Position numbers and translations under genes: made by a program. Below the pieces are notes generated by a model. The model made no database searches, was not told the origin of the DNA, and saw nothing but the letters and a program-made list of their open reading frames with translations. DNA of 59,453 nt, the filler included. It is 5 parts of 5 records of this genome, joined end to end, with 100 filler letters (N's around TTAATTAATTAA, not from the genome) between each part and the next. Parts side by side here need not be neighbours in the genome. Positions count along the whole stretch, not along the records: positions 1 to 13,317 come from SRR31156797_5738; 4 more parts are not named here. One strand, 5' to 3'. Positions 5,624-47,884 of the stretch are shown piece by piece. Position 1 is the stretch's first letter. Every line of letters begins with the position of its first letter.

Positions 5624-7294
5624 ATGAGCACAACTTACACCGCTGAAGCTGTCAGCGAAAAAGACACTCTTGTGGACATCCGCATTAGCGTGGATGGCAG
5701 AAAAAAACACATGTGGGGCAAATACGGACTGCGCCGGGAAACAGATCTAGCCGCACAGCTGGATGAGGACAGAATCCCCCTGCTGGTTGGTTCTGGTATC
5801 GGTGTAGCAGCTCAGGAGCTTCTTAAACAAAAAGACCGCCACCTTCTCATCCTTGACTGCGAAACTGAAATACTCACCGCCAGCGGCTTAAAAGAAGAAC
5901 TTCGCAAGGACCCCAGAGTAATCTGGATCAATACCAGCTCCCCCCAAAATGCTGCAGCACACATAATGGAACTGGAATCAACTTCCGGTAAAAAAGTCCA
6001 GCTGCTCAAAAATCCCTTCTACCTGCGCCTCTCCCCCTTCTATACCCAGACAGAGAAACTGCTTATCGAACAGGAAGGAAAGCCTGTTGAGTTTCCGGTC
6101 TGGCCTAAGTTTCAAAATGACGAGCCAAGAATCCTGCTTCTAACCAGCCAATATTTCCTTATGGGAGAAATCGTGGCCGCCTGCCAGCGTCAGGGTGTGC
6201 CGCACATGTTCATCAACATGGACGCTAAAGAGATGGAACTCGAACAATTCGTGGCCCGGATTTCATCCGCCATCAATACCTTCCGCCCTGACTTTGTGCT
6301 TACGGTCAACCACCTTGGTGTTGATCAGGAAGGAGTCCTCAACACCCTGCTCCATAAATTTCAATTGCCGCTGGCCTCATGGTTTGTGGACAATCCCTTA
6401 CTGATTCTGCCCCTTTATCAAACGCAGGACAACGAGAACACCACCATCTTCACTTGGGATGCAGACCGCATGGACTCCTTGCGGCAAATGGGTTTCAAAA
6501 CAATTTTCCACCTGCCACTGGGGACGGACCAAACCCGCTTCCTGCCCTCCAAAGGCTGCACGGAAAATAAATGGGCAAGAGATATTTCCTTTGTAGGAAA
6601 TTCCATGGTCCACAAGACAGCCAAAAGAATGGAAGTAGCCAGAATTTCCGGGCCGCTGGCTGAAAAATATCAAGAGGTGGCCCATGCTTTCGGACAGGGC
6701 AATGAACATTCTGTCGTAAATTTCCTTAAAACCGACTACCCGGAACTTATCCCGGAATACGACAACCTAGCAATACCCCACCGCAAACTGGCTTTCGAAA
6801 CTCTGATCATCTGGCAGGCAACCCTTGAATACCGCCTCTCCTGCGTGAAGCAGACTCTGGGATTTAATCCCATGATAGTAGGCGATGACGGCTGGAAACA
6901 ATTGCTGGCAGACAAAGCCACATGGGAATACCACAGCGAACTTTCCTATTATGACGACCTGCCCCGCTTTTATCCATGCTCAAAAATCAACTTCAACTGC
7001 ACCAGCCAACAGATGAAAGGTGCGGTAAACCAACGGGTATTCGATGTCCCGGCCTGTAACGGATTCATCCTCACCGACCACCGCTACCAGATGGAAACAC
7101 TATTTGAGCCGGGCAAGGAAATTGCCGTCTACAATTCACAGAAAGAAATCCCTCAACTGATCGATAGATACCTGAGCGACGAAACCACCCGCAAAGCAAT
7201 AATTAAAGCTGCCCGCAAAAGGATTCTGGCTGAACACACCTACGACTGCCGCATCAAAACCCTGATTGATTGTATGCGCCAAGCGCATTCTTAA
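5624..7294 (+). CDS. CgeB/YkvP-like glycosyltransferase (DUF3880 + GT-B C-terminal domain)
   Basis: SWFVDNP, HLPLGTD, DISFVG, SKINFN...NQRVFDVPACNGF and RILAEHTY..R motifs. Start is either ATG 5624 or TTG 5621. Confidence 0.8.
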   Translation: MSTTYTAEAVSEKDTLVDIRISVDGRKKHMWGKYGLRRETDLAAQLDEDRIPLLVGSGIGVAAQELLKQKDRHLLILDCETEILTASGLKEELRKDPRVIWINTSSPQNAAAHIMELESTSGKKVQLLKNPFYLRLSPFYTQTEKLLIEQEGKPVEFPVWPKFQNDEPRILLLTSQYFLMGEIVAACQRQGVPHMFINMDAKEMELEQFVARISSAINTFRPDFVLTVNHLGVDQEGVLNTLLHKFQLPLASWFVDNPLLILPLYQTQDNENTTIFTWDADRMDSLRQMGFKTIFHLPLGTDQTRFLPSKGCTENKWARDISFVGNSMVHKTAKRMEVARISGPLAEKYQEVAHAFGQGNEHSVVNFLKTDYPELIPEYDNLAIPHRKLAFETLIIWQATLEYRLSCVKQTLGFNPMIVGDDGWKQLLADKATWEYHSELSYYDDLPRFYPCSKINFNCTSQQMKGAVNQRVFDVPACNGFILTDHRYQMETLFEPGKEIAVYNSQKEIPQLIDRYLSDETTRKAIIKAARKRILAEHTYDCRIKTLIDCMRQAHS

Positions 7295-7303
7295 TTTTGC
7301 AAC

Positions 7304-7341
7304 AAGAAATCCCCGATTCGCTTGAACCGGGGATTTTTTTA
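7304..7341. terminator. Intrinsic terminator between convergent genes
   Basis: AAATCCCCGATTC-GCTT-GAACCGGGGATTT stem followed by a T-run. Confidence 0.75.
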
Positions 7342-7345
7342 TTAC

Positions 7346-7361
7346 TCTTCCGACCGGAAGA
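7346..7361 (-). other. Candidate bacterial SECIS element for the FmdB gene UGA (7373-7375)
   Basis: mRNA reads UGA-GGUUGAUAAUU-UCUUCC-GGUC-GGAAGA. The perfect 6-bp stem starts 11 nt after the UGA and has a GGUC loop. No U-tract follows, and it is separate from the terminator. Confidence 0.65.
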
Positions 7362-7366
7362 AATTA

Positions 7367-7582
7367 TCAACCTCATGAAAAGCCGGAGCTGCCGCAACCT
7401 CCAGCCGGCGGAGCGGACGGAACAGGGTCGGGAAATGATGCTCCGGAACTAAATGAGGAAAGAAGCTTTCCGGTATCCGGGCTTTTGCATTCCGGGCACT
7501 TAGGATTCTCAGCACTGGAAGAAAGGACCAGTTCCTCGAATTCATGCCCGCAGACATTGCATTTATATTCATAGATAGGCAT
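7367..7582 (-). CDS. FmdB-family zinc-ribbon protein, probably with C-terminal selenocysteine (...GGCGSSGFS-U-G)
   Basis: MPIYEYKCNVCGHEFE...CPECKS is the FmdB signature. The apparent stop TGA (7373-7375) is followed by GGT TGA TAA and a SECIS-like hairpin. The family call is secure; Sec readthrough is inferred (without it the CDS is 7373-7582). Confidence 0.85.
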
Positions 7583-7585
7583 CTG

Positions 7586-7738
7586 CTATTTGCCTCCGCA
7601 ACCACCGTTTTTATTGTTGGAACCCCCACGGGGCCCCTTGCCAATCTGTCACGGGGCAATTCCCATTTTGGGGATCACCACTTTCACGATGATGAAAACG
7701 ACTGCGAACACCGCAATCAAGCCAAGTAAATCTGACAT
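7586..7738 (-). CDS. Small single-TM protein with in-frame UGA, candidate selenoprotein (MSDLLGLIAVFAVVFIIVKVVIPKMGIAP-U-QIGKGPRGGSNNKNGGCGGK)
   Basis: Translated by hand; absent from the ORF track. GAGG lies 5 nt before ATG 7738. A hydrophobic helix is followed by TGA at codon 30 (7649-7651). The readthrough ends at TAG, 3 nt before the FmdB start. Confidence 0.65.
7619..7637 (-). other. Candidate bacterial SECIS element for the UGA at 7649-7651
   Basis: mRNA reads UGA-CAGAUUGGCAA-GGGGCCCC-GUG-GGGGUUCC. The 8-bp stem (2 GU pairs) starts 11 nt after the UGA and the loop begins with GU. Confidence 0.6.
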
Positions 7739-7844
7739 CTGAACCTCACAGGTTGGTTATCTACACTTCCTTACCAGTTAAATCTTATATTACCTGTGTC
7801 AATAACAGACCACAAGAATAATCATATCAATCAATGGCTCAAGA

Positions 7845-9563
7845 TTAAACACTGTCTAGATTCACATAAAAACGAAAAGTAGTCCCCTCTCCTACATTGC
7901 TGGACACAAAAATTTCCCCACCCATCATGCCCACCAACTTGCGTGAAATGGGCAAACCAAGCCCCGTTCCTCCATATTTCCTGGAAGTAGAAGAATCTGC
8001 CTGAGTGAAGCTTTCAAAAACATAATTGAGTTTGTCTGCTGATATTCCAATGCCTTCATCCTTCACCGCAAAAAAAAGTTTCCCGGCATCCCGATAAACG
8101 GACACCGCAATAGTTCCTTCGCTGGTAAATTTTACCGCATTACTGATCAGGTTATTCAAGACCTGCCTGATTCGAGTGGCATCACCAATCACTTTCTCCG
8201 GTATGTCCTCATCAATATGACAGACAACCTTCAAACCTTTACGAGCGGCATCCACAGTGAAAACGCCAACCACTCTTTCCAACATCTCATGGAGCAAAAA
8301 TTCATGCCGTTCTATTTCCAAATGTCCGGCTTCAATTTTCGATATTTCCAGAACATCATTAATTATCTCAAGAAGATTTTCCCCGGCGGTCCCGGCAATA
8401 TTCAAAAATTCCCGCTGTTCGTCGTCAACTTTGGTTTCCTTGAGCAACTCCACCATTCCGAGAATAGAGTGCATGGGAGTTCGGATTTCATGACTCATGT
8501 TGGCCAAAAATTCAGTTTTCACCCTGCTGGCGGTTTCTGCCTTTGTTTTTTCTTCCTGCAGCAAAACCAGAATATCATTTATTGATTTAGACAGATCATT
8601 GAGTTCATCATTTCCACTCAAACGAAGCGTCCTTTGTTCCGGGCCGGTAAAAAACTCACCACGTAGCTGCTCCTGCAACCTCTTCACCCGGGAAATAAAA
8701 TACCTGTTGAGGACAAAAGTAGCGCCAACACCGAGAAGCAAAAGAGCCCCGCACATAAAGATGAGAAAGACCTTGAACAAGGAGCTTCCGATTTCATAGG
8801 CATCACGATCCATGCCCAATCCCAACAGAACTAGAGGTTTTCCGAGAACATCCCGCTGAGCGATAAATCCGTTAAGTTTATCATCCCCGCTTTCCTGAGA
8901 ATCAAAAAAAATATCCCTGTCAGGAATAACTTTCAGCTCCTTGAAAAAAAGATCCATCTGTAAAGCCTTACCCAACATGCCCAGATGACGGTCCCCAAAA
9001 TAGCGGCCCATAATCATCGTTCCCGCAGGAGTGCCCTCTAAATTGCTTTTTAAAATTTTTTGCACGCTGATCTGCATCAGTCTATGGTCAATTCTGGCCA
9101 ACCCGGTCAAACCTTCACTTCCGCATTTACGGATTATCTTGTTTCCCTGACAGCCCTCGGTAGTAAAACAGAGTTCTATGGCATCATTTCCTTCAGCTAA
9201 ATGCGAGAAATAATGTTTCCCCTCATTATCAAAAAACATAATCAGATCGAGATCAAGGTTGACCAGAACCTCCGGAGTCAAATTTGAGAGGACATATTGT
9301 TCGTTGAATTCTTTTACAAATAGATATGTATCATCCCACCAGGACCAGTCACGGCAAAGTCTCTGCAAAGCCTGTGAACTTTCATTCATCGCAAATTCTG
9401 CCCGACTGAGATTTTCTTCCATCAGTACTTTTTCAACCTTGGATATAGCGCGACTGTTGAGCTTATAAACCAGCAGGACACTACCCACAAATACCAGCAG
9501 GCAAATCATAGACACAATTAAATAACTTTTACCCTTCAACCCAATTCGCATGAACACCCTCAA
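7845..9563 (-). CDS. CHASE4-domain membrane sensor histidine kinase
   Basis: DWSWWDDTY (CHASE4), two TM segments, [14 protein letters not shown]-box, [10 protein letters not shown] and GGTGLGL. Confidence 0.9.
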
Positions 9564-23213: not shown

Positions 23214-23813
23214 ATGTATGCCTTAGCCGTTAATGGAAGCCCGCGAAAAGGTGGTAATACAGAATTACTGCTCCAAGAAGTACTTGGAGAATTAAGCAGC
23301 AGTGGCTGGGAAACAGAACTGATCAAGGTAGGCGGTACAGATATCCGAGGCTGTATTGCCTGTGAACAATGCTTTGCCAACAAAAACAACCGGTGTGCTG
23401 TAAAAAAAGACGCTTTTAATGATATCTATGCCAAAATGTGTAAAGCGGACGCCATGATCTTAGGATCTCCAACCTACTTTGCAGCTGTATCCGGTGATCT
23501 CAAAGCACTCATAGAGCGAGCCGGCTTTGTTGCCTATGCAAATGATAATGCTTTCACCGGTAAAATTGGTGCTGCTGTTGTTGCTGTCAGGCGAGGTGGA
23601 GCAACCCACGCCTATGACACTATTAACCATATGTTTCAGATGTCGAGAATGATCCTACCCGGCTCAACGTACTGGAACATGGGTTATGGCTTGAAAAAGG
23701 GAGAGGTGAAAGAAGATGTCGAAGGCTTGAACAACATGCGTCACCTCGGGAAATCCATTGCATGGTTAGGTAAAGCAATACAACCCCACCTGGACGATTA
23801 CCCAAAAGGATAA
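23214..23813 (+). CDS. Iron-sulfur flavoprotein / NADPH-dependent FMN reductase family
   Basis: NGSPRKGGNT, CIACEQC...C cluster motif, GSPTYF and RRGGA. Confidence 0.88.
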   Translation: MYALAVNGSPRKGGNTELLLQEVLGELSSSGWETELIKVGGTDIRGCIACEQCFANKNNRCAVKKDAFNDIYAKMCKADAMILGSPTYFAAVSGDLKALIERAGFVAYANDNAFTGKIGAAVVAVRRGGATHAYDTINHMFQMSRMILPGSTYWNMGYGLKKGEVKEDVEGLNNMRHLGKSIAWLGKAIQPHLDDYPKG

Positions 23814-23826
23814 ATCGGCTGGTCTC

Positions 23827-24585
23827 ATGTTTGATCCAATCACACTGTTTGCTGTTGTCGGAATATTTCTTATTGCCGGCACAGTAAAAGGCGTTATAGG
23901 ATTAGGGCTGCCGACCATCAGCTTAGCGTTGCTGACGGCAGCCTTTGACCTGCACAGTGCCATGGCCCTGTTACTATTGCCATCTCTGATGACAAACCTG
24001 TGGCAGGCTTTGGCCGGCGGTCACGGCAAGATACTCATACTGCGAATCTGGCCCTTTCTTTTCATGGCCACGGCGACCGTTCTGCTTGGCGCAACCGCGT
24101 TGACCCGCATTGCCCCTTCTTCTCTTTCTGCATTGCTAGGAATCCTGCTGATTGCCTATGCTGCGTCAAGCCTCATCGGTTACAGACTCGTACTTACCAG
24201 AGCACAAGAACGTTGGTACGGCCCGGTAGCCGGTTGCATAAACGGTATCCTCACCGGGATGACCGGCTCTTTTGTAGTTCCGGGGGTACTGTTTCTTCAG
24301 GCTATAGACCTTTCCCGGGACAAACTGATCCAGGCAATGGGTATGCTTTTCACAACTTCAACCCTGGCTCTGGCATTTGCTTTACAACATAATAATCTCC
24401 TCACTCTAGAAAAAGGAACACTTTCCTTTATAGGCCTTCTGCCTGCTATAGCCGGCATGGTAGTCGGTCAATGGATTCGCAAAAAAATATCGGAACCATA
24501 TTTTAAGAAAATCTTCTTTTTTTCTCTTCTCCTGTTGGGCATCTATGTGGTACTGAGCAGTGCCTTCTTCCATCCTCCCCACTGA
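23827..24585 (+). CDS. Sulfite exporter TauE/SafE family membrane protein
   Basis: AGTVKGVIGLGLP and GILTGMTG repeats; about 8 TM segments. Confidence 0.85.
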   Translation: MFDPITLFAVVGIFLIAGTVKGVIGLGLPTISLALLTAAFDLHSAMALLLLPSLMTNLWQALAGGHGKILILRIWPFLFMATATVLLGATALTRIAPSSLSALLGILLIAYAASSLIGYRLVLTRAQERWYGPVAGCINGILTGMTGSFVVPGVLFLQAIDLSRDKLIQAMGMLFTTSTLALAFALQHNNLLTLEKGTLSFIGLLPAIAGMVVGQWIRKKISEPYFKKIFFFSLLLLGIYVVLSSAFFHPPH

Positions 24586-45165: not shown

Positions 45166-46356
45166 TTATATACCTAAAGGTGCATTAGGTTCTATTTTAC
45201 AGTTTCCCTTCCCATCACATTCAATATTTGCATCAAGATAAAATACATTATCGATTCTTTCATATTTTATCTCTTGTAAAAACCCTCTTGCTTCTAAGCC
45301 TCTTGTCCCTGTACCACAAAAGAAGATCACATCTCCACTTTGAGGGATAGCTTTTGCTAACTCTTTTGGAGTCATTTTCTCAGCTTGGATATTGATTGCT
45401 CCTGGAATTGTCCCTTTTTTATAATCACTCGGTGCTCTTACATCAACTAAAGTTACAGATTTTGGAAATTTTTTATAATTTTTTACAAACCATTCCCCAT
45501 CAACAGTTCCTTTATCCACACCTTGCTCTAGCACACCACTTTTACTAAGCCCTCTTTTTTTCAATGAGGTTTTTGCTACTGCACCAGAACTTCCTGTAAT
45601 ATTATAGTTCTTTTTCTTCCAATCTGGAAAACCAGCTGCTAAAACTTTTACATTTGTATATCCAAGTGCTACAAGTTTATTTGCTACAGAGTGCGATTTA
45701 TGACAATTAAACCCTCCACAAAATGGAACAATTGCAGCAGTTTTATCTACTGGCATAAATTTAGCATATTTTTCAAACTTTGTATCTGGAACACCCATTG
45801 ACCCTACAATAGTACTTCCAGCAAATTTTGGCCAAGGTCTTGCATCGATAAAAAGTGCATCTTGTTTGTCAAATAATACTTTTGCAACTTTTGTATCTAT
45901 CTCTACATAGTTTTTCTTTTTCCACTCAGGAAGTCCCTCAGTGTAAACCTTAACATTTTTATGCCCTTTTTTAATAAGTGCAATTGCTACTTTTGGAGAT
46001 TTTACACATTTAATTCCACCACAATACACGATCACTTCTTTGTTTTTATCTATTTTTCCATAAAGGATATCGTATAGAGTATCAAACTTTGTATCTGGAA
46101 GTGGTTGAGCACTCGGGATGTGAGATACTTTATATTTTTTTAAAGGACGAGCATCTAGGATCAATGATTTTGCTCCTTTTCTAGTCCCATCACCGATAGC
46201 TTTTAATACATAGTTATAATCTACAACTTTAAGATTATTCTCTTTTATCAGCTTTTGCACCTCTGCTGAAGTTTCATTTGCCCCTGCAAAACCAGTAAAC
46301 ATTACAAGCAATAATGAAGCGAATAATAACTTTGCCATTTTGTTGATCTCTTTCAT
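45166..46356 (-). CDS. Exported three-domain rhodanese (sulfurtransferase)
   Basis: Signal peptide and three rhodanese repeats (LDARP..Y..SHIPSA, IDARP, VDVRAP..Y..GTIPGA) with loops YCGGIKC, FCGGFNC and FCGTGTR. Confidence 0.88.
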   Translation of the reverse strand: MKEINKMAKLLFASLLLVMFTGFAGANETSAEVQKLIKENNLKVVDYNYVLKAIGDGTRKGAKSLILDARPLKKYKVSHIPSAQPLPDTKFDTLYDILYGKIDKNKEVIVYCGGIKCVKSPKVAIALIKKGHKNVKVYTEGLPEWKKKNYVEIDTKVAKVLFDKQDALFIDARPWPKFAGSTIVGSMGVPDTKFEKYAKFMPVDKTAAIVPFCGGFNCHKSHSVANKLVALGYTNVKVLAAGFPDWKKKNYNITGSSGAVAKTSLKKRGLSKSGVLEQGVDKGTVDGEWFVKNYKKFPKSVTLVDVRAPSDYKKGTIPGAINIQAEKMTPKELAKAIPQSGDVIFFCGTGTRGLEARGFLQEIKYERIDNVFYLDANIECDGKGNCKIEPNAPLGI

Positions 46357-46495
46357 GATGTCTCCTTTTTAAAGTTCAAGATAATCATAACAAATTCTTA
46401 ACTAAAAATTCAATCATTTTATCTTTCTTTTAACAAAATTGTATCATAATTTTATTAAAGAATGAACAATCATTCATAATACCAAGGAGTTTATC

Positions 46496-47884
46496 ATGGT
46501 AAGTAAAGAAAGAACATTTGAAGTTTTAGAGAGTTTTAGTCGTAGAGATGCTATCAAAGCCCTTGGTCTCATCTCTACAACCCCTTATTTGCTAAATACT
46601 CAAGCAAAAGCCTCTGTAAAATCACAAGCAAAAATTGTAATCGTAGGTGGTGGAGCTGGTGGGATAACAGTGGCTGCAAGACTAAATAGAGCTATGGATA
46701 ATCCAGATATAACTATAATAGAGCCAAGCTCACGCCATGTATATCAAGCAGGCCACACTTTAGTAGGTGGTGGGATTACAAAAGCAGAAAAACTGATACG
46801 AAGTACACAAGAGTATATTCCAGACACAGCAAAATGGATACAAACAAAAGCTACAAATATAGATCCAGAATCACAAAAAGTAAGCCTAGAAAATGGTGAA
46901 GTACTAAGCTATGATTATCTTGTAGTTTGTCCAGGCTTACAATATGACTGGAATAGAATAGAAGGGCTTGATCCAAACACCATAGGACAAAATGGTCTTA
47001 ATACTATCTATACACTTGATGGTGCTATAAAAACATGGGAAAATATCCAAGCCTTTGCAAAAAAAGGTGGAGAAGCGATCTTTACCCATCCTGATACTCC
47101 TATTAAATGTGGAGGAGCTCCAAAAAAGATCATGTATATTATGGATGATTATTTACGACAACAAGGGATGAGAGATAAAGCAAACCTCCACTATAACGCA
47201 AATAGTGGGAAACTTTTTACTATTCCAGTTTTTGCAGAGGCTATCAAAGGTCACTTTACTGAACGAAATATGAACTATAAACTAGGACATAACTTAGTAA
47301 AAATAGACCCAGATAAAAAAATAGCTACCTTTGCTACAAAAGTAAAAACAAAAGGTGCATGGGATCCTGATCTAGAAGAGTATGAAGAGATCATAGAAGA
47401 TAAACTTATTACTCAGCCTTATGACTTTATACATGTGCCACCTCCAATGAGTGCACCTGATTTTATCAAAGACTCCCCTCTTCCATGGACAAAAGGAGCT
47501 GCTGGAAAACTAGGACTTATTGATGTGGATAAATATACACTCCAACACAATCGTTATAATAACGTGTTCTCTTTAGGAGATGTCATAGGAGCTCCATATG
47601 GAAGAACAGGAGGAAGTGTAAGAAAACAAGCTCCAGTATTAGTAGAAAATATGCTTAGCGTTATGCAAGGTAAAGAAGCTACTGCAAAATTTAGCGGATA
47701 TACAGTATGTCCTATTATCACAAGATATGGAAAAGTTATGCTTGCAGAGTTTGACTATACTGGTGGTGTAGCTCCAACAATCCCTGGAATTGATCCAACA
47801 CAGGAAAGATGGATGTGGTGGATTATGAAAGTATATATTTTAGAGCCTATGTATTTTTATGGGATGCTTAGAGGGTTAGCGTAA
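46496..47884 (+). CDS. sqr: Sulfide:quinone oxidoreductase-like flavoprotein (type II-like), Tat-exported
   Basis: SRRDAIK twin-Arg leader, IVGGGAGG FAD motif, KCGGAPKK and GYTVCP catalytic Cys motifs, MLAEFDY. Confidence 0.78.
   Translation: MVSKERTFEVLESFSRRDAIKALGLISTTPYLLNTQAKASVKSQAKIVIVGGGAGGITVAARLNRAMDNPDITIIEPSSRHVYQAGHTLVGGGITKAEKLIRSTQEYIPDTAKWIQTKATNIDPESQKVSLENGEVLSYDYLVVCPGLQYDWNRIEGLDPNTIGQNGLNTIYTLDGAIKTWENIQAFAKKGGEAIFTHPDTPIKCGGAPKKIMYIMDDYLRQQGMRDKANLHYNANSGKLFTIPVFAEAIKGHFTERNMNYKLGHNLVKIDPDKKIATFATKVKTKGAWDPDLEEYEEIIEDKLITQPYDFIHVPPPMSAPDFIKDSPLPWTKGAAGKLGLIDVDKYTLQHNRYNNVFSLGDVIGAPYGRTGGSVRKQAPVLVENMLSVMQGKEATAKFSGYTVCPIITRYGKVMLAEFDYTGGVAPTIPGIDPTQERWMWWIMKVYILEPMYFYGMLRGLA

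Follow-up and report, generated by a model that had tools for sequence, protein, structure and literature searches.

A membrane micro-protein gene and an FmdB zinc-ribbon gene, each with an in-frame UGA followed by a covarying hairpin, form a predicted pair of selenoprotein genes in Desulfovibrionaceae

We examined a stretch of DNA of 59,453 nucleotides (the window, by which we mean the whole stretch analysed, with positions counted along its joined parts), in which two short adjacent genes of a sulfate-reducing bacterium, here called gene 1 and gene 2, are candidates for selenoprotein genes. Both genes, their UGAs and the associated hairpins lie on the minus strand: gene 1 (7738-7586) is followed after a gap of 3 nt by gene 2 (7582-7367), which encodes an FmdB-family protein. 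The original prediction had described tandem minus-strand genes 3 nt apart with a hairpin 11 nt after each TGA, a description that proved accurate to the base, both hairpins being found by RNAfold. Gene 1 starts with an ATG (7738-7736), preceded at 5 nt by a GAGG ribosome-binding motif (7744-7747), both read directly; the ribosome-binding region TGTGAGGTT ahead of the ATG is kept in related loci. Up to an in-frame TGA (7649-7651) gene 1 comprises 29 codons, which specify a hydrophobic helix, and 20 more in-frame codons then lead to a TAG (7588-7586). Translated through the TGA, with selenocysteine (Sec, U) predicted at residue 30, the gene yields a 50-residue single-helix micro-protein, MSDLLGLIAVFAVVFIIVKVVIPKMGIAP-U-QIGKGPRGGSNNKNGGCGGK, whose layout recurs in 59 further genomes. 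Hairpin 1, GGGGCCCC-GUG-GGGGUUCC (7619-7637), resembles a selenocysteine insertion sequence (SECIS) and lies inside the coding region, 11 nt after the TGA.

Gene 2 opens with an ATG (7582-7580, read directly) and encodes a 71-residue zinc ribbon that matches PF09723 (6.7e-17) and TIGR02605 (1.2e-16) and scores above both curated FmdB cut-offs (60.5 bits vs 31.3 and 61.7 bits vs 34.4 in the TIGR02605 / PF09723 test). Its end reads ...AGGCGSSGFS-TGA-GGT-TGA-TAA: the first TGA (7375-7373) is the predicted Sec codon, at the penultimate residue 70, the second (7369-7367) is the stop, and the TAA comes right after. The four zinc-ribbon Cys are encoded by TGC or TGT, and the sole UGA stands at C-x6-U. 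SECIS-like hairpin 2, UCUUCC-GGUC-GGAAGA (7346-7361), is found 11 nt after this predicted Sec codon, in the 3' untranslated region (3'-UTR), and a terminator-like stem-loop with a U-rich tail (7301-7334) closes the two-gene unit (RNAfold of 7290-7385, -37.5 kcal/mol, z -5.31). An equivalent GC stem follows the genes in related loci; the stem at 7301-7334 had no entry in a simple terminator scan. A 105-codon open reading frame (ORF) that runs in another frame across both genes (7342-7659, minus strand) was unsupported and was set aside as a shadow of the two real genes.

Conservation of the gene 1 UGA and of the frame behind it was followed through several searches. The first protein search gave nine relatives of exactly 29 residues (9/9), indicating that all had been truncated at one and the same codon. 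Six Maridesulfovibrio-type genomes all have TGA as this stop (6/6), with the reading frame intact beyond it and an insertion of two codons likewise in frame. Among 401 Desulfovibrionaceae genomes a profile search returned 47 gene 1 matches at E <= 0.01, the best 25 of which have exactly one TGA each, and a broader profile matched in 113 of 401 sampled Desulfobacterota genomes, with TGA in 111 of 114 match rows, two rows stopping short of the position and one holding a TAA. We inspected 60 loci, namely the window, 30 loci of the family Desulfovibrionaceae (L008-L037) and 29 of the phylum (L039-L067). TGA stood at the same codon in 59 of the 60 (the window, 30/30 family loci and 28/29 phylum loci), and it came directly after the motif P-[KR]-x-G-x-x-x in 58 of the 59 loci besides the window. 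Locus L007 was rejected as a spurious match without the shared layout. The frame behind the UGA was open for 17-33 codons in every locus, with indels in multiples of three. Across nine loci of one subgroup the five codons from the UGA to hairpin 1 differed 0, 0 and 81 times at codon positions 1, 2 and 3, with 67 synonymous vs 14 non-synonymous codon differences, and the comparison of the nine loci over 13 codons gave 26/0/135. For the 20 downstream codons in the window's subgroup the corresponding figures were 389/297/590, synonymous changes being about three times commoner in the gene 1 frame than in the other two. Most Desulfobacterota have a Cys 4 residues after the Sec codon and most Desulfovibrionaceae 5 residues after it; in the window's own subgroup the tail Cys is found instead near the C-terminus, in GGCGG.

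Wider profile searches with gene 1 covered 5.8 billion proteins (542 matches at E <= 1) and 1.84 billion cluster representatives (1156 at E <= 0.001), and 250 of the proteins so found were fetched and sorted by the residue at the Sec position. Exactly at the motif ended 124 of the 250; 61 read on with Cys at the Sec position (...LPKLGxxT-C-MSGxC... vs ...T-U-MSEAC in Sec forms), and 32 were missed by the classifying pattern, most of them visibly the same Cys form. Trp stood there in 28 entries and Gly in two (e.g. P0057, P0061, P0065, P0055 and P0235), probably TGA read by gene callers under other genetic codes (4 or 25) on ordinary bacterial contigs. Leu, Ser and Lys occurred in one entry each, and the Lys entry, a spurious repeat protein, was discarded. 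Alignment of 27 Cys forms showed L22, P23, G26, T29, C30 and C35 to be invariant. The predicted Sec/Cys exchange is the classical pair for validating a selenoprotein family.

These data bear on the possibility that both UGAs are ordinary stops, with gene 1 encoding a 29-residue membrane peptide and the stretch behind it acting as an RNA element, for instance in the coupling or regulation of downstream translation. Such an arrangement would agree with the calling of the 29-residue ORF by gene callers, with the position of hairpin 1 and of the gene 2 ribosome-binding site in that stretch, and with the TAA of one homologue, but it is opposed by the third-position-only changes (0/0/81) outside hairpin 1, by a frame that is open in all 60 loci with in-frame indels, by at least 61 relatives that continue through with Cys at that codon, and by the retention of the stretch also where no FmdB gene follows; we regard it as extremely improbable. 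For gene 1, the expectation of TGA or Cys at the UGA position in homologues was borne out (TGA in 59/60 loci, Cys in at least 61 database proteins), as was that of coding conservation past the UGA, given the third-position-dominated changes and the open frame. The claim that the gene is unannotated and missed by gene callers held in that the full product is cut, but not in that the 29-residue stub is called in many genomes, including all nine first matches.

Neither the Sec nor the Cys form of gene 1 reached or came close to the cut-off of any Pfam (even at E <= 10) or NCBIfam family, gene 1 fits no entry among the 119 families in Table 1 of a 2026 selenoprotein catalogue (PMC13188914), and literature searches on small membrane selenoproteins of these bacteria turned up no paper on the gene 1 micro-protein. 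A cluster look-up of ten relatives gave no informative names, and the Protein Atlas yielded one weak match (0.88) to an unnamed cluster, which serves as a lead only. We propose that gene 1 represents a new, widespread micro-selenoprotein family.

Hairpin 1 was seen in every gene 1 locus. Over 28 aligned sequences 82.6% of the cells were paired vs 63.2% in shuffles and at most 56.3% with the partner slid, both sides had changed in five of eight pairs, and the covariation score was reached by none of 500 shuffles. The position after the gene 1 UGA is taken by either of two unrelated stems, GGGNCCC and GCUGC, with a G/U-containing loop. For hairpin 2, compared over 17 sequences, 93.3% of the cells were paired vs 83.4% in shuffles and at most 66.4% when slid, and both sides had changed in four of seven pairs. 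Its loop is GGUC in 15 of the 17, with one GGGC and one 5-nt GGUCU; we take GGUC to be the loop of the E. coli fdhF element as well. Where FmdB has been deleted or truncated (L014, L011), hairpin 2 is gone or its loop has decayed, indicating that it belongs to the gene rather than to the terminator. Under a geometric rule of our own (a perfectly paired stem of 6 bp or more, 3 or more of them GC pairs; a 3-6 nt loop containing both G and U; and a start 8-16 nt after the TGA), 8 of the 2322 TGA trinucleotides in the window qualified, and among those 8 only the TGAs of gene 1 and gene 2 close a real ORF.

Analysis of five close relatives revealed the genes for Sec decoding at scores over curated cut-offs: selB, selA and tRNA-Sec in all five (5/5 each) and selD in four (4/5). 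selD carries an in-frame TGA in each of the relatives G001-G004, and fdhA, encoding formate dehydrogenase alpha, carries one in each of G001 and G002, G001 having two fdhA, which indicates that these relatives make several conventional selenoproteins. The hairpins of selD and of the two fdhA in G001 have G-rich loops and lie about 13-19 nt after the UGA, a geometry like that of gene 1 and gene 2. All sampled words of the searched window region 7250-7900 were present in run X1, which may be the source of the window DNA and whose contigs cover a relative's selB and selA completely at about 88% identity; the runs listed for that region included no RNA run. Two points that the original prediction had left to be checked turned out in its favour: the hairpins carry compensatory changes (5/8 and 4/7 pairs), and the host lineage has Sec genes, with selA, selB, selD and tRNA-Sec in close relatives and selB and selA also in run X1.

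The gene 1 UGA might also be passed without selenocysteine, either by a near-cognate tRNA (Trp or Cys) or by stop and restart making a second tiny peptide. An AUG after the UGA in many members outside Desulfovibrionaceae would suit such passage, as would the 28 Trp and two Gly database entries, were these not probably the product of callers' other genetic codes. Yet a start codon follows the UGA in none of 28 Desulfovibrionaceae (CAG, CAA, CGN, GGN or AGC stands there), the covarying hairpin lies at SECIS distance, Cys is the only residue taken as genuinely encoded at the position besides the single Leu and Ser, and Sec machinery was present in all genomes tested. We consider passage without Sec very improbable; gene 1, judged from its sequence and that of its relatives, is very probably decoded with selenocysteine.

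Turning to gene 2, the plain ORF of every intact FmdB downstream of gene 1 ends with TGA (29/29 loci and the window, 30/30), the copies ending F[ST/G]-UGA, and in all 30 the TGA is followed by 1-2 codons (G, AA, AG, AV, A, GS, GT; D once) and then a stop. Desulfovibrionaceae copies have GGT, GGC or GGA next to the TGA in 17 of 18 cases, so that this codon varies only at the third position there. Across 26 aligned FmdB proteins the four ribbon Cys and C63, G64, F68 and U70 of the tail are invariant. The FmdB of one locus (L022) reads ...AGPIYEYRC without ATG, GTG or TTG at the usual start, yet keeps the GFS-TGA-GGN-stop ending. Public databases hold gene 2 as a 69-residue protein, in agreement with the claim that callers cut it short, and many FmdB entries of other origin have ...GCGSGGFS or ...GGFT as their annotated C-terminus.

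It is conceivable that only gene 1 encodes a selenoprotein and that the gene 2 UGA is a plain stop, backed up by the tandem stop after GGN, with the GGUC hairpin acting from the 3'-UTR on stability or termination. With only 1-2 codons past the UGA there is little coding signal to measure, hairpin 2 lies just before the intrinsic terminator, and the gene 2 position has no unambiguous Cys-for-Sec column, all of which would be in keeping with a plain stop. However, the first stop is TGA in 30/30 copies with Gly or Ala next and third-position variation, F68 and the Cys six residues ahead are invariant, hairpin 2 covaries, stays at a fixed spacing from the UGA and has decayed in loci that have lost the gene, and the organisms use Sec. 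We therefore hold a plain stop to be unlikely. Decoding of gene 2 with selenocysteine is probable, its case being somewhat weaker than that of gene 1 because low-complexity tails give no clean Cys-for-Sec column, and gene 2 would then be an uncatalogued C-terminal Sec form of FmdB.

The distance from gene 1 to FmdB is 3-4 nt in the window's family, and elsewhere in the phylum FmdB lies 97-202 nt downstream of gene 1 in 14 of 26 parsed loci. In the Desulfovibrionaceae loci L011, L014, L021, L023, L029-L032 and L034, FmdB is deleted, truncated (e.g. MPVYECKCTE-stop-stop) or cut to a few recognisable codons; in these loci gene 1, its TGA and its hairpin are retained. Beside the Cys forms, no FmdB was found in any of the 42 metagenome loci with at least 600 nt downstream (0/42), a count from which 16 of 80 loci, unparsed by the pattern, had been dropped. 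Given the loss of FmdB beside gene 1 in several Desulfovibrionaceae and its absence beside these Cys forms, the pairing is lineage-specific, without obligation. The gene order that the original prediction had put up for checking is kept in many lineages, but not in all, and the two genes are no obligate pair.

Together, the data favour the reading that both genes are selenoprotein genes with ordinary bacterial decoding, to which, from sequence comparison, we give a probability of about 0.8. SelB with Sec-tRNA(Sec) would bind the hairpin shortly 3' of each UGA, and selenocysteine would be inserted there. The gene 1 product would have 50 residues: an N-terminal membrane helix, the invariant P-K-x-G-x-x-x, Sec, and then a short, basic tail that contains one Cys. 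In the wider family [Sec/Cys]-x4-5-Cys comes directly after the helix. The gene 2 product would be a 71-residue FmdB zinc ribbon whose flexible Gly/Ser tail ends in C-x6-Sec-Gly, with the SECIS beyond the stop codon.

Several observations weigh against this reading. Taken singly, the hairpin energies are not unusual when compared with shuffles (z -1.62 and -1.38; 16 of 200 shuffles fold as well), and Rfam at gathering score has no family in the window, region 7250-7800 giving only sub-threshold chance matches over the terminator. Since selA is nearly universal in the phylum sample (371/401 genomes), its co-occurrence with gene 1 is uninformative, and among the selA-negative genomes listed are four gene-1-positive genomes without a selA match; in these four selB and tRNA-Sec are present. 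One locus (L055, G512:C11), in a genome with selA, has TAA at the Sec position, which may be a recent knock-out or a sequencing error; the frame behind this TAA, ...KSCSMQP, is still open. The GGCGG that holds the only tail Cys of gene 1 in the window's lineage overlaps the GGAGG ribosome-binding site of gene 2, so that conservation of this Cys may be partly at the RNA level. The AUG right after the gene 1 UGA in many members outside Desulfovibrionaceae makes a separate downstream peptide formally possible. Other FmdB proteins (P0037-39, P0045) have Cys-rich tails, e.g. ...GCGSGGCGCH, low-complexity sequences without an unambiguous column alignment to gene 2. The lineage-specific pairing of the two genes counts on the same side.

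Of 13 Desulfovibrionaceae loci scanned for neighbouring genes, 9 have the pair flanked by a CHASE4 histidine kinase gene on one side and a DUF3880 glycosyltransferase-like gene on the other. The neighbours of Sec forms include CcdA/DsbD-type membrane proteins (5 of 29 phylum loci), PrxQ-type peroxiredoxins (two loci, family L035 and phylum L066) and Hsp33 (one locus). The CcdA/DsbD-like neighbours were considered as the selenoprotein TsoB and rejected, since they score 57-82 bits vs a cut-off of 805 and have generic DsbD-type membrane domains. In four Desulfobacterota loci that are not from Desulfovibrionaceae (L039, L046, L052 and L067), gene 1 is immediately preceded on its own strand by a gene of the GSU2086 family (NF052581, 397-431 bits) and has FmdB downstream. 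The only paper found on GSU2086 describes it as a hypothetical protein in a sugar-biosynthesis operon, and the available text of that paper offers no functional lead (PMC5585712). Among the 26 Cys-form neighbourhoods scanned, a persulfide-dioxygenase-like/rhodanese fusion with TauE occurs in two, one of them also with an SQR-like flavoprotein, and a CoA-disulfide reductase in two, one fused to a rhodanese domain; DsbD-thioredoxin, thioredoxin and 1-Cys peroxiredoxin occur in one each, cytochrome-bd-I-like proteins in six and DUF302 in four. Within L070, L074, L090 and L143 the Cys form is placed inside apparent sulfide/persulfide detoxification clusters, made up of a metallo-beta-lactamase (MBL)-fold/rhodanese fusion with TauE (L070 also with the SQR-like flavoprotein) or of CoA-disulfide reductase (rhodanese-fused in L143).

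These neighbour contexts fit a thiol/selenol redox or sulfur-handling role without proving it, and we put such a role forward tentatively; the redox or metal-sensing module of the original prediction is likewise a suggested role. By our own application of the positive-inside rule, not a tool result, the basic tail of gene 1 with its [U/C]-x4-5-C should lie at the cytoplasmic face. The Sec/Cys pairs could be redox-active, as a selenenylsulfide, or bind sulfur or metal, and in the window's lineage the products of gene 1 and gene 2 may cooperate at the inner membrane face. More speculative, and in our view rather unlikely, is a dedicated selenium relay in which the membrane Sec-x-Cys motif would exchange a selenenylsulfide or diselenide, or bound sulfur or metal, with the Cys-x6-Sec tail of FmdB and in this way link a membrane or redox signal to a partner in the cytoplasm, which in Desulfovibrionaceae may be the conserved CHASE4 histidine kinase whose gene lies immediately upstream. 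If such a relay existed, FmdB would be a redox or sulfur carrier and the micro-protein its membrane dock. We know of no assigned function for the FmdB family.

The remaining window is ordinary chromosome, with MotA/MotB, CysS, IspDF, a molybdate-type ABC transporter, HypF and others, and a tRNA search of the window found none. Two sulfur-related regions were seen in it: an FMN reductase followed by a TauE/SafE-type exporter (23214-24585), and a triple-rhodanese protein divergent from an adjoining pyridine-nucleotide-disulfide oxidoreductase (45166-47884).

Prokaryotic selenoproteomes are still being catalogued, with 119 families in the 2026 review (Table 1 of PMC13188914). Gene 1 would add a common family, present in 113 of 401 sampled Desulfobacterota genomes and in 1156 clusters at 50% identity, Cys forms counted, which would have been overlooked because its product has only about 50 residues and is cut by callers to 29. 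In the very large FmdB family, many database entries probably lack their last two or three residues, the missing part including the chemically most reactive residue. The two-gene unit, with a predicted Sec/Cys pair in both products, would offer a compact entry point to what FmdB proteins do, and the Cys forms beside sulfide/persulfide enzymes and Sec forms beside CcdA/DsbD-like proteins provide a testable lead to membrane sulfur or thiol redox chemistry.

Like the SECIS of E. coli fdhF and the consensus that Zhang and Gladyshev gave for bacterial elements, the hairpins described here are stem-loops placed at a constant, short spacing 3' of the UGA, and their apical loops contain G (and U); their stems are shorter. 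The gene 1 product resembles the PF12669 FeoB-associated Cys-rich membrane proteins in its N-terminal single helix and short Gly/Cys tail, but it has no Pfam match at E <= 1 or E <= 10 and carries its own motif, P-K-x-G-x-x-T-[U/C]-x4-C, after the helix. The predictor deep-Sep may, according to the available sections of its paper, miss families without Cys homologues, and neither the gene 1 nor the gene 2 protein is named in those sections among its nine new families (PMC12013277). FmdB-family selenoproteins were predicted in 2008 from two Global Ocean Sampling reads with a CxxU motif (Zhang and Gladyshev, PMC2398784, as excerpted), and appear as 'U/CxxU' in the relevant part of a 2022 review (PMC9312934) and as 'UxxU, 2 Sec' in Table 1 of the 2026 catalogue (PMC13188914). 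Gene 2 and the published proteins belong to one family (TIGR02605/PF09723), and both have a predicted Sec with a bacterial SECIS behind the UGA (as described in the excerpted text of PMC2398784); compared by described motif only, gene 2 differs in having one penultimate or antepenultimate Sec in C-x5-6-U-[G/A], without CxxU or UxxU, and its SECIS past the stop. A single Sec one or two residues before the FmdB C-terminus with a 3'-UTR SECIS is not among the entries of Table 1 of PMC13188914. The same catalogue, in the part available, describes the 'UXX-star' (NF041114, NF041211) and 'KCU-star' (NF033934) families, which are unrelated protein families whose models gene 2 and its relatives do not match, but which have a layout like that of gene 2: Sec stands 1-3 residues before the stop, and the SECIS must therefore lie in the 3'-UTR.

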